A stretch of 57,999 nucleotides of DNA from an uncultured Planctomycetia bacterium (GCA_964483625.1 CAZABB010000009.1:1-57999), one strand, 5' to 3'; counted from the stretch's first letter, positions 39,011 to 39,757 are shown. The notes: generated by a model from the sequence alone, not told the origin. Numbers and translations: made by a program.

Positions 39011-39039
39011 TTGACAAAATCAAGAAAATAATATATAGT
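39011..39039 (+). promoter_or_regulatory. sigma70 promoter of the NYN cassette
   Basis: TTGACA-17-TATAGT. Confidence 0.75.
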
Positions 39040-39045
39040 TTAATT

Positions 39046-39113
39046 GGAATTAATTCATCCCTAGTGGGATACGTCCCACTAGCCACCTCTGGGTTACGAT
39101 CCAGAGGTTTTTT
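39046..39113 (+). ncRNA. Putative twin-hairpin leader RNA ending in a terminator
   Basis: ctagtggga-TACG-tcccactag (39061-39082), then acctctgggt-TACG-atccagaggt plus a T-run (39085-39113). Confidence 0.55.
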
Positions 39114-39121
39114 GTTTTATA

Positions 39122-39757
39122 ATGAATAAAATAATTTTCCTCATTGATGGGTTTAATGTATACCACTCGATATTACAGATAAAAAGAGATACTCAATATA
39201 ACACTCGCTGGTTAGATCTGCATTCTCTCTGCAAATCATACCTTCATCTATTTGGGAAAAATGCCGTTCTGGAAGACATCTTTTATTTCTCCGCTGTCCC
39301 TTTTTATCTCAACAATCGAAATCCTGGGAAAATAAAACGCCATCCGACTTATTTATCTTGTTTGGAGGCTACACATATTAAAATTGAACTCGGACGCTTT
39401 AAAGAAAAAACCGTTTTTTGTGATAAATGCCGCAGTTATATTTTAAAACACGAAGAGAAAGAAACAGACGTTGCAATCGGGGTTAAAGCTTTCGAAATAT
39501 TTGCTCAAAATCACTGTGATATATCTGTAGTAGTAACCGGGGACACAGATTTATCTCCTGCATTCAAAAAATGCAAACAATTATTCCCAAATAAAAGATT
39601 TGTATTTGCTTTCCCCTATAAGCGTAAAAACAAAGAACTTGCTTCCTTAGCTCCAGGTTCATTTTCTATAAACCACACCCAATACTTAAAATATCAACTG
39701 CCCAACCCTGTAATGTTACCCAACGGCCACAAAATATACAAACCAAAACATTGGTAA
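39122..39757 (+). CDS. NYN / LabA-DUF88 PIN-like nuclease
   Basis: IDGFNVYH, EEKETDV and VTGDTDLSP acidic motifs; CDKC insert; AT-rich; opposite strand to its flanking genes. Confidence 0.88.
   Translation: MNKIIFLIDGFNVYHSILQIKRDTQYNTRWLDLHSLCKSYLHLFGKNAVLEDIFYFSAVPFYLNNRNPGKIKRHPTYLSCLEATHIKIELGRFKEKTVFCDKCRSYILKHEEKETDVAIGVKAFEIFAQNHCDISVVVTGDTDLSPAFKKCKQLFPNKRFVFAFPYKRKNKELASLAPGSFSINHTQYLKYQLPNPVMLPNGHKIYKPKHW

Follow-up and report, generated by a model that had tools for sequence, protein, structure and literature searches.

The 57,999-nt stretch of DNA analysed here, referred to below as the window, comes from an uncultured Planctomycetia bacterium (GCA_964483625.1 CAZABB010000009.1:1-57999) whose own genome measures 2.02 Mb. 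On its plus strand, a promoter, a small-RNA gene ending in an intrinsic terminator, and a gene for an NYN-domain nuclease follow one another within less than 1 kb. The sigma-70-type promoter of the small RNA (39011-39039) consists of TTGACA (39011-39016), a 17-nt spacer, and TATAGT (39034-39039), agreeing with the consensus at 11 of 12 positions; the initial annotation had rightly described it as near-consensus and had placed it correctly. The small-RNA gene, delimited by a covariance-model match to 39052-39116, comprises a 5' tail, a first hairpin, a CC linker, a second hairpin, and a U-run, and its transcript is predicted to extend from about 39046 to about 39118. The conserved, single-stranded tail (39053-39060) reads AUUCAUCC at this locus, with the consensus AUCAUCC. 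Hairpin 1 (39061-39082) has 9 bp and a UACG loop (TACG in the DNA); its basal 4 bp are conserved and covarying, and its distal part is variable. Hairpin 2 (39085-39118), which is the intrinsic terminator, has a 10-bp stem (39085-39108) with the conserved top GGGUUACGAUCC and a UACG loop, and is followed by the U-run. At the DNA level, this run is T6 (39108-39113), G, and T4, and the nuclease ATG at 39122 lies 8 nt past the T6 run. The two adjacent stems and the T-run described earlier are thus present where they had been reported. Between the end of the -10 element and the AUUCAUCC tail lie 13 nt, a distance that is mostly 5-12 nt at other loci, and the RNA of the window probably carries a few additional 5' bases.

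The nuclease gene (39122-39757, plus strand) encodes 211 aa and belongs to the PADLOC family HEC-09. Its start codon is preceded by no purine-rich Shine-Dalgarno sequence at normal spacing, as had been observed before. The protein matches Pfam NYN (PF01936) over residues 7-154 with 31.2 bits against a cut-off of 24.2, and PADLOC HEC-09 (PDLC04163) with an E-value of 5.2e-47, residues 1-211 aligning with model positions 1-202 of 203. HEC-09 was the only PADLOC result, and distant relatives of the protein likewise match this family. An AlphaFold2 model (pLDDT 92.9) found as its top Foldseek matches the LabA-like NYN protein 2qip (E 6.8e-8) and the NYN domain of MARF1 (5yaa, 6fdl). In an alignment of 14 sequences, down to 30% identity, residues D9, E111, E112, D133, D141, and D143 are invariant. 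From its sequence and modelled fold, the protein is predicted to be a metal-dependent NYN (PIN-like) RNase whose acidic site is intact. The 2.02-Mb genome contains one copy of the gene, and 653 relatives were found in databases.

HEC-09 was described by Payne et al. as an NYN-type candidate defence gene embedded in Hma systems (bioRxiv 10.1101/2024.01.29.577857). In the family's only published test, as described in the available text of that preprint, the cloned representative kept about 150 bp of its upstream region and was placed behind an added inducible promoter; protection was seen against none of the phages tested, and toxicity is not reported there (10.1101/2024.01.29.577857). The main text, as available, treats HEC-09 as a single protein gene and contains none of the terms non-coding, ncRNA, and intergenic (10.1101/2024.01.29.577857). 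The protein of the window is a full-length member of the same family, with an NYN/MARF1-like fold and the conserved aspartates, but unlike the published gene it is embedded neither in Hma nor in another defence system.

The module lies in an AT-rich insert of about 0.9 kb (approximately 38880-39780; 34-38% GC against 48% for the genome) and points opposite to its neighbours thiL and mtnA. The surroundings are not a defence island: one flank holds thiL, tsaE, tsaB, and alr, and the opposite flank mtnA, tatD, and metG. Since three of the four relatives examined have mtnA next to thiL with no such segment between them, the module is an insertion. Among close homologues, similarity extends from the -35 element to the stop codon, and one predicted viral contig bears the RNA together with its NYN gene.

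The insert sits between two arrays of 8-mers, a left array of the GTCACA type (38733-38871) and a right array in the inverted TGTGAC orientation (39781-39923), which form the inverted-repeat pairs I1, I3, I5, and I8. The genome harbours a whole family of such intergenic palindromic elements, each a GTCACA-type array followed by an inverted TGTGAC array, with 12 dense clusters; apart from the window, copies lie on contigs C4, C6, C12, C18, C19, C26, C35, C72, and C74 of the genome (G000). Overall, though, the 5-mer is under-represented, with 2572 occurrences where 3944 were expected. Short centres of 20-100 nt separate the arms in the other copies; in the window, the arms stand about 0.9 kb apart around the NYN module. 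Duplicated promoter segments and TGTGAC arrays likewise flank the NYN gene at L003. The last residues of mtnA (…SPGYHVT), at 39894-39925, are encoded inside the right array, and the repeat may have lengthened the annotated C-terminus. The idea that the nuclease is a RAYT-like mobiliser of these arrays was rejected, because most other NYN loci lack the arrays and the conserved limits of the module are the -35 element and the stop codon.

Conservation and covariation of the small RNA

Folding of 39040-39130 gave an MFE of -31.1 kcal/mol (z = -4.4), and none of 200 shuffled sequences folded as well. A single terminator-like site was found in 1.4 kb where 1.5 were expected, which is not above chance when taken alone; the case therefore rests on conservation, as revealed by comparison with other loci. 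For this purpose, one genome per species was scanned, yielding 517 NYN relatives; the 80 best-scoring loci among them were retained. They derive from metagenome-assembled genomes (MAGs) labelled Omnitrophota, Nitrospiraceae, Deltaproteobacteria/Desulfobacterales, Chloroflexota/Dehalococcoidia, Bacteroidota, Acidobacteriota, Gemmatimonadota, Chlorobium, Verrucomicrobia, Rubrobacteraceae, Thermotogae, and others.

Among these best 80 of 517, one upstream unit is nearly universal: a -35/-10 promoter, the AUCAUCC tail, hairpin 1, the CC linker, hairpin 2 with the top GGGUU(A/G)CGA(U/C)CC, and a U-run. Hairpin 1 has a conserved CCAG/CUGG base and a variable top, and a scripted stem search recovered a hairpin-2-like stem in 78 of 81 loci, including the window. 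Within the tail, at least 90% of 76 sequences share alignment positions T4, C5, C8, and C10. RNAalifold, applied to 76 distinct aligned sequences, returned 13 pairs, 11 of them with compensatory changes; all four basal pairs of hairpin 1 have changes on both sides, as do seven of the nine pairs of hairpin 2, in which 99.9% of the cells are paired. Over the entire consensus structure, 99.1% of the cells are paired, compared with 83.4% in shuffles, and 169 cells are changed on both sides, compared with 36.5 in shuffles and 11-22 when the partners were slid by 1-3 columns.

A covariance model of the RNA, R1, matches 78 of the best 80 of 517 loci exactly once each (40.6-78.6 bits). The two exceptions are L070, which has just 9 nt of contig left before the NYN gene, and L082, whose variant scores weakly (25 bits). 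As 75 of the 78 matches are model-building sequences or copies of them, they are expected, and in two pairs of loci (L003/L010 and L004/L011) one contig was recovered twice, by different routes; the matches independent of model building are L051, L172, L191, and L197. In the window, R1 matches with 68.8 bits (E 4.8e-16), which is the sole match in the 2.02-Mb genome. Across 41 related genomes, it matches only the four with a close NYN relative; in five other NYN-bearing genomes (3.3-6.5 Mb), there is one strong match each, at the NYN locus; and five of 151 genomes of the phylum are matched.

The promoter is conserved together with the RNA, since 59 of the 78 loci have at least 9 of 12 consensus positions just upstream, in most cases 5-12 nt before the tail. 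This spacing indicates that the 5' end of the RNA is itself conserved. A clear Shine-Dalgarno sequence at normal spacing is present in some loci (e.g., L022, L054, and L058), and the count of 30 of 78 given by a regular expression is inflated by the GGAGG of hairpin 2's own 3' strand. Within 1.5 kb of the 80 loci (best of 517), no conserved protein neighbour was found, so the earlier observation that no protein antitoxin accompanies the nuclease holds beyond the window. An Rfam scan of 38600-40000 at E <= 1 returned only a chance microRNA match and no abiF match. A 44-aa ORF (38995-39129) spans the promoter and both hairpins; it has no Pfam match, contains the promoter, and is covered by conservation at the level of RNA pairs, and is probably not a gene. 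Pairing of the tail with the start-codon region (UCAU with AUGA) and of the hairpin-2 top with 16S rRNA was also considered; these pairings involve 4-7 nt only and were judged to be due to chance.

Another explanation of the leader would be that nothing about it is remarkable, the accessory gene being preceded by an ordinary promoter together with a chance pair of hairpins or a terminator of the generic kind. The frequency of terminator-like sites noted above agrees with this, as does the hairpin-1 UACG loop, which is not conserved. Nevertheless, sequence and structure are conserved across many phyla, the covariation is far above that of the shuffled and slid controls, and R1 finds a single match per genome; the R1 matches and the covariation refute this explanation, to which we assign almost no weight. 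The leader is a conserved, structured, and separately terminated small-RNA gene. The initial annotation had proposed that a covariance model would show whether the hairpins are conserved upstream of homologues, and they are. Its emphasis on twin UACG loops was partly justified: both loops are present in the window, and that of hairpin 2 (UACG or UGCG) is conserved across phyla, but the UACG of hairpin 1 is incidental, as the loops at this position vary freely in both length and sequence.

The 65-nt RNA is identical in three loci, two from MAGs labelled Omnitrophota and one from Desulfuromonas sp. SDB (L010, L012, and L013), which points to recent transfer or a binning error.

Arrangement variants and association with the nuclease

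In 77 of the 78 RNA-positive loci found through the protein, the RNA lies directly upstream of the NYN gene on the same strand, and the gap between hairpin 2 and the start codon is 5-59 nt (median 20). This layout is what would be expected of a cis-acting autoregulatory leader, in which the NYN protein binds or cuts its own 5' UTR and thereby sets read-through or mRNA stability, and in which the free RNA has no role. Moreover, no space is visible in which the nuclease could have a promoter of its own, and its mRNA must therefore contain the RNA; the RNA upstream of AbiF, in the portion of the source available, likewise acts in cis (bioRxiv 10.1101/2025.04.15.648962). Against this stand two loci, L051 and L172, in which the RNA gene, with its own TTGACA-type promoter, is located downstream of the NYN gene and convergent with it, its terminator abutting the NYN stop codon. 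As the two NYN proteins are only 56% identical, the convergent arrangement must be old and stable. The RNA cannot serve as a 5' leader there, and it follows that it need not be one; it can function from a non-leader position. A strong promoter and a strong terminator also imply that mostly the short RNA alone is made, and RNA genes that have no adjacent NYN gene keep consensus promoters (e.g., L140, L142, L148, L171, and L197). We therefore consider a purely cis-acting leader unlikely, although it deserves to be kept in view. The initial annotation had left the choice between an RNA antitoxin and an autoregulatory attenuator; the convergent loci and the promoter-keeping orphan RNAs favour a separately functioning RNA partner and disfavour a pure attenuator.

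More distant nucleases provide a second form of the RNA. NYN proteins about 31% identical to that of the window (L005, L198, L200, and L201) are preceded by a diverged type-B RNA, consisting of UAUCAUCCCA, hairpin 1, UGGCCCCG, hairpin 2 with a 6-7-nt loop, and a U-run. The tail and the helix junction are constant in types A and B, whereas the hairpin-2 loop is conserved only within type A. These sequences show that the RNA co-evolves with its nuclease family.

The association was also approached from the RNA. Searching metagenome contigs with the exact consensus pattern, which is blind to decayed RNAs, yielded 81 instances in 80 loci out of 89 matching stretches. Sixteen instances with less than 650 nt downstream were left out, 9 of which show the start of an NYN gene. 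Among the 65 assessable copies, 41 have an intact NYN gene directly downstream, 12 a truncated or frameshifted one, one an intact convergent one, and 11 none; hence, 23 of the 65 have no intact adjacent NYN gene, although some of the broken genes may be metagenome assembly errors. Conversely, no NYN locus without the RNA was found among the assessable loci of the protein-first set, which comprises the best-scoring 80 of 517 and is biased towards intact genes. The RNA co-occurs exclusively with this nuclease clade, in many phyla.

Several of the RNA copies lacking an NYN gene retain a consensus promoter and are followed by other TA-like or mobile-element genes, namely a VapBC-like pair (L140, with L150 and L176 as shorter copies), an AbrB-like gene (L171), an MNT-like gene (L148), and an HTH-ImmA-like gene (L142). 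In a genome that is 95% complete (G124), a promoter-bearing type-A RNA has no adjoining NYN gene, and the only NYN gene of that genome has a type-B RNA. Such orphan RNAs and broken RNA-NYN copies could be decay remnants.

One copy of the hairpin pair of this RNA was seen in a different setting in L144 (about 1325-1384), between two tRNA genes, with neither promoter nor NYN gene. It begins right after the ACCA of the first tRNA, which replaces the AUCA of the tail, and the next tRNA follows immediately on its 3' side.

Conservation and exclusivity would be equally expected if the RNA were a cofactor or activator, or a protein-bound cis element. The RNA may be a positive partner, that is, a scaffold, cofactor, or sensor in a ribonucleoprotein that serves nuclease folding, substrate choice, or activation. 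Strict co-occurrence and co-evolution with the NYN protein are consistent with such a role; conservation of the single-stranded tail and of the top of hairpin 2 hints at specific recognition, and the HEC-09 family gave no phenotype on heterologous expression in the available text of the preprint (10.1101/2024.01.29.577857). The RNA, though, has no variable guide-like segment, its variable part being the paired distal stem of hairpin 1, and the layout, which would make the RNA in excess over the protein, matches antitoxin systems. The RNA is also often kept where the nuclease is broken, and NYN/PIN nucleases are not known to need an RNA cofactor. We regard a positive role as unlikely, slightly more so than a purely cis-acting leader. 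The more specific notion of an OMEGA-like guide RNA was rejected, as the 5' tail does not vary and the part that does is base-paired.

Known RNA-controlled systems and the proposed function

The initial annotation had compared the module with toxin-antitoxin (TA) systems of type III, and the order of promoter, structured RNA, terminator, and RNase gene, with no protein partner, supports that comparison. As in ToxIN, CptIN, TenpIN, and AbiQ/antiQ, a constitutive promoter, an antitoxin RNA, an intrinsic terminator, and an endoribonuclease gene would follow one another; a protein antitoxin is lacking, the module is mobile with a patchy distribution, and terminator read-through would set the toxin-to-RNA ratio. 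The likeness ends with the RNA and the protein fold. Here, the RNA is a single twin-hairpin unit rather than a series of tandem direct repeats, so that no processing into repeat monomers is implied, and the predicted fold of the nuclease is that of a metal-dependent NYN/PIN-like enzyme rather than that of ToxN, AbiQ, CptN, or TenpN. A search of 39000-39130 found no tandem repeats in the leader; the sole array, at 39791-39813, belongs to the flanking GTCACA repeats. Because tandem repeats are lacking and the toxin fold differs, the module is not a member of the ToxIN/AbiQ-type families.

The nearest functional analogue is AbiF (Abi_2) with its upstream abiF-motif RNA. According to the portion of the preprint available, the RNase is neutralised in cis and in trans by direct binding of this RNA, as in RCd22 of C. 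difficile, and the pair is thus a precedent for a type III-like RNA antitoxin of a non-ToxN RNase (10.1101/2025.04.15.648962). Both systems combine such an RNase with a conserved hairpin-motif RNA just upstream. They differ in the protein (Abi_2/HEPN-like there, NYN here) and in the architecture of the RNA, and the leader has no abiF match in Rfam at E <= 1.

The hairpins in the 5' UTRs of E. coli rne and rnc represent the leaders of autoregulated RNases. There, too, an RNase gene follows a 5' region whose structure could be recognised by the encoded enzyme, but those leaders are not known to contain a terminator that makes a discrete small RNA or to be mobile modules, and the convergent arrangement seen here would not work for rne or rnc. 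Titles and abstracts retrieved for NYN in combination with RNA antitoxin, type III TA, or ncRNA describe no such pair, and we found neither an Rfam family nor a paper describing the RNA-NYN pair.

In our judgement, the chances are evenly balanced that the module is a toxin-antitoxin or defence pair resembling type III systems, in which the toxin fold is new and the RNA has no repeats; its layout suggests this function. Under this reading, the strong constitutive promoter would drive a small RNA of about 65-70 nt composed of the tail, hairpin 1, the CC linker, and the hairpin 2 terminator, directly behind which the NYN RNase is encoded. Most transcripts would stop at hairpin 2, and only read-through transcripts would encode the nuclease; as suggested by the strong promoter and strong terminator, the RNA would therefore be in large excess. 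The tail, the helix junction, and the hairpin-2 top are the likely protein contacts, and the bound RNA may hold the nuclease inactive, as a pseudo-substrate or inhibitor. A collapse of the RNA supply or degradation of the RNA, for instance through phage shut-off of host transcription or loss of the module, would free the nuclease, which could then cut cellular or phage RNA. Among the observations that count against the toxin-antitoxin reading, the published HEC-09 test was negative, the RNA has no tandem repeats, and the module of the window lies among housekeeping genes.

More tentatively, and with a probability that we place somewhat short of even, the module may represent a new, phylum-spanning class of RNA-antitoxin TA or abortive-infection systems, in which a single-copy twin-hairpin RNA of about 65 nt directly restrains an NYN RNase through its AUCAUCC tail and helix junction. 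All of HEC-09, the copies carried by small plasmids of Klebsiella and E. coli among them, would in that case operate as RNA-protein pairs, which could explain why a protein-centred test gave no phenotype. If so, a third toxin fold (NYN/PIN-like) and a repeat-free RNA architecture would be added to the RNA-antitoxin systems, and HEC-09 would change from a single-gene candidate with no phenotype into a testable two-component system. The related nuclease genes on very small enterobacterial plasmids would be possible RNA-controlled addiction or defence modules. The RNA would constitute a well-defined new family, counting hundreds of instances in two sub-types and covarying clearly, and would be suited to Rfam and to structural work. 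More generally, 'orphan' defence nucleases may have an unannotated RNA partner that was overlooked.

NYN genes of the HEC-09 family, about 34% identical to that of the window, occur on 262 plasmid records, 179 of them from Klebsiella and 22 from Escherichia, and many of these plasmids measure 3.5-5 kb. The best HEC-09 match found (E 6e-98) is located on the Thermus oshimai plasmid pTHEOS01 (L188, 2380-2500), just after a helicase-related gene, and three hairpins with no U-run precede it. Three plasmids were examined, the E. coli plasmid pHFQ5 (NZ_AP023432.1; L187, 1162-1481) and two others (L189 and L190); their copies are 98% identical, too alike to judge covariation. In these three, a helix-turn-helix (HTH) gene lies upstream in divergent orientation, and a strongly structured non-coding region of about 190 nt precedes the NYN gene (MFE -71.8 kcal/mol, z -5.9), with a terminator 24 nt before the ATG.
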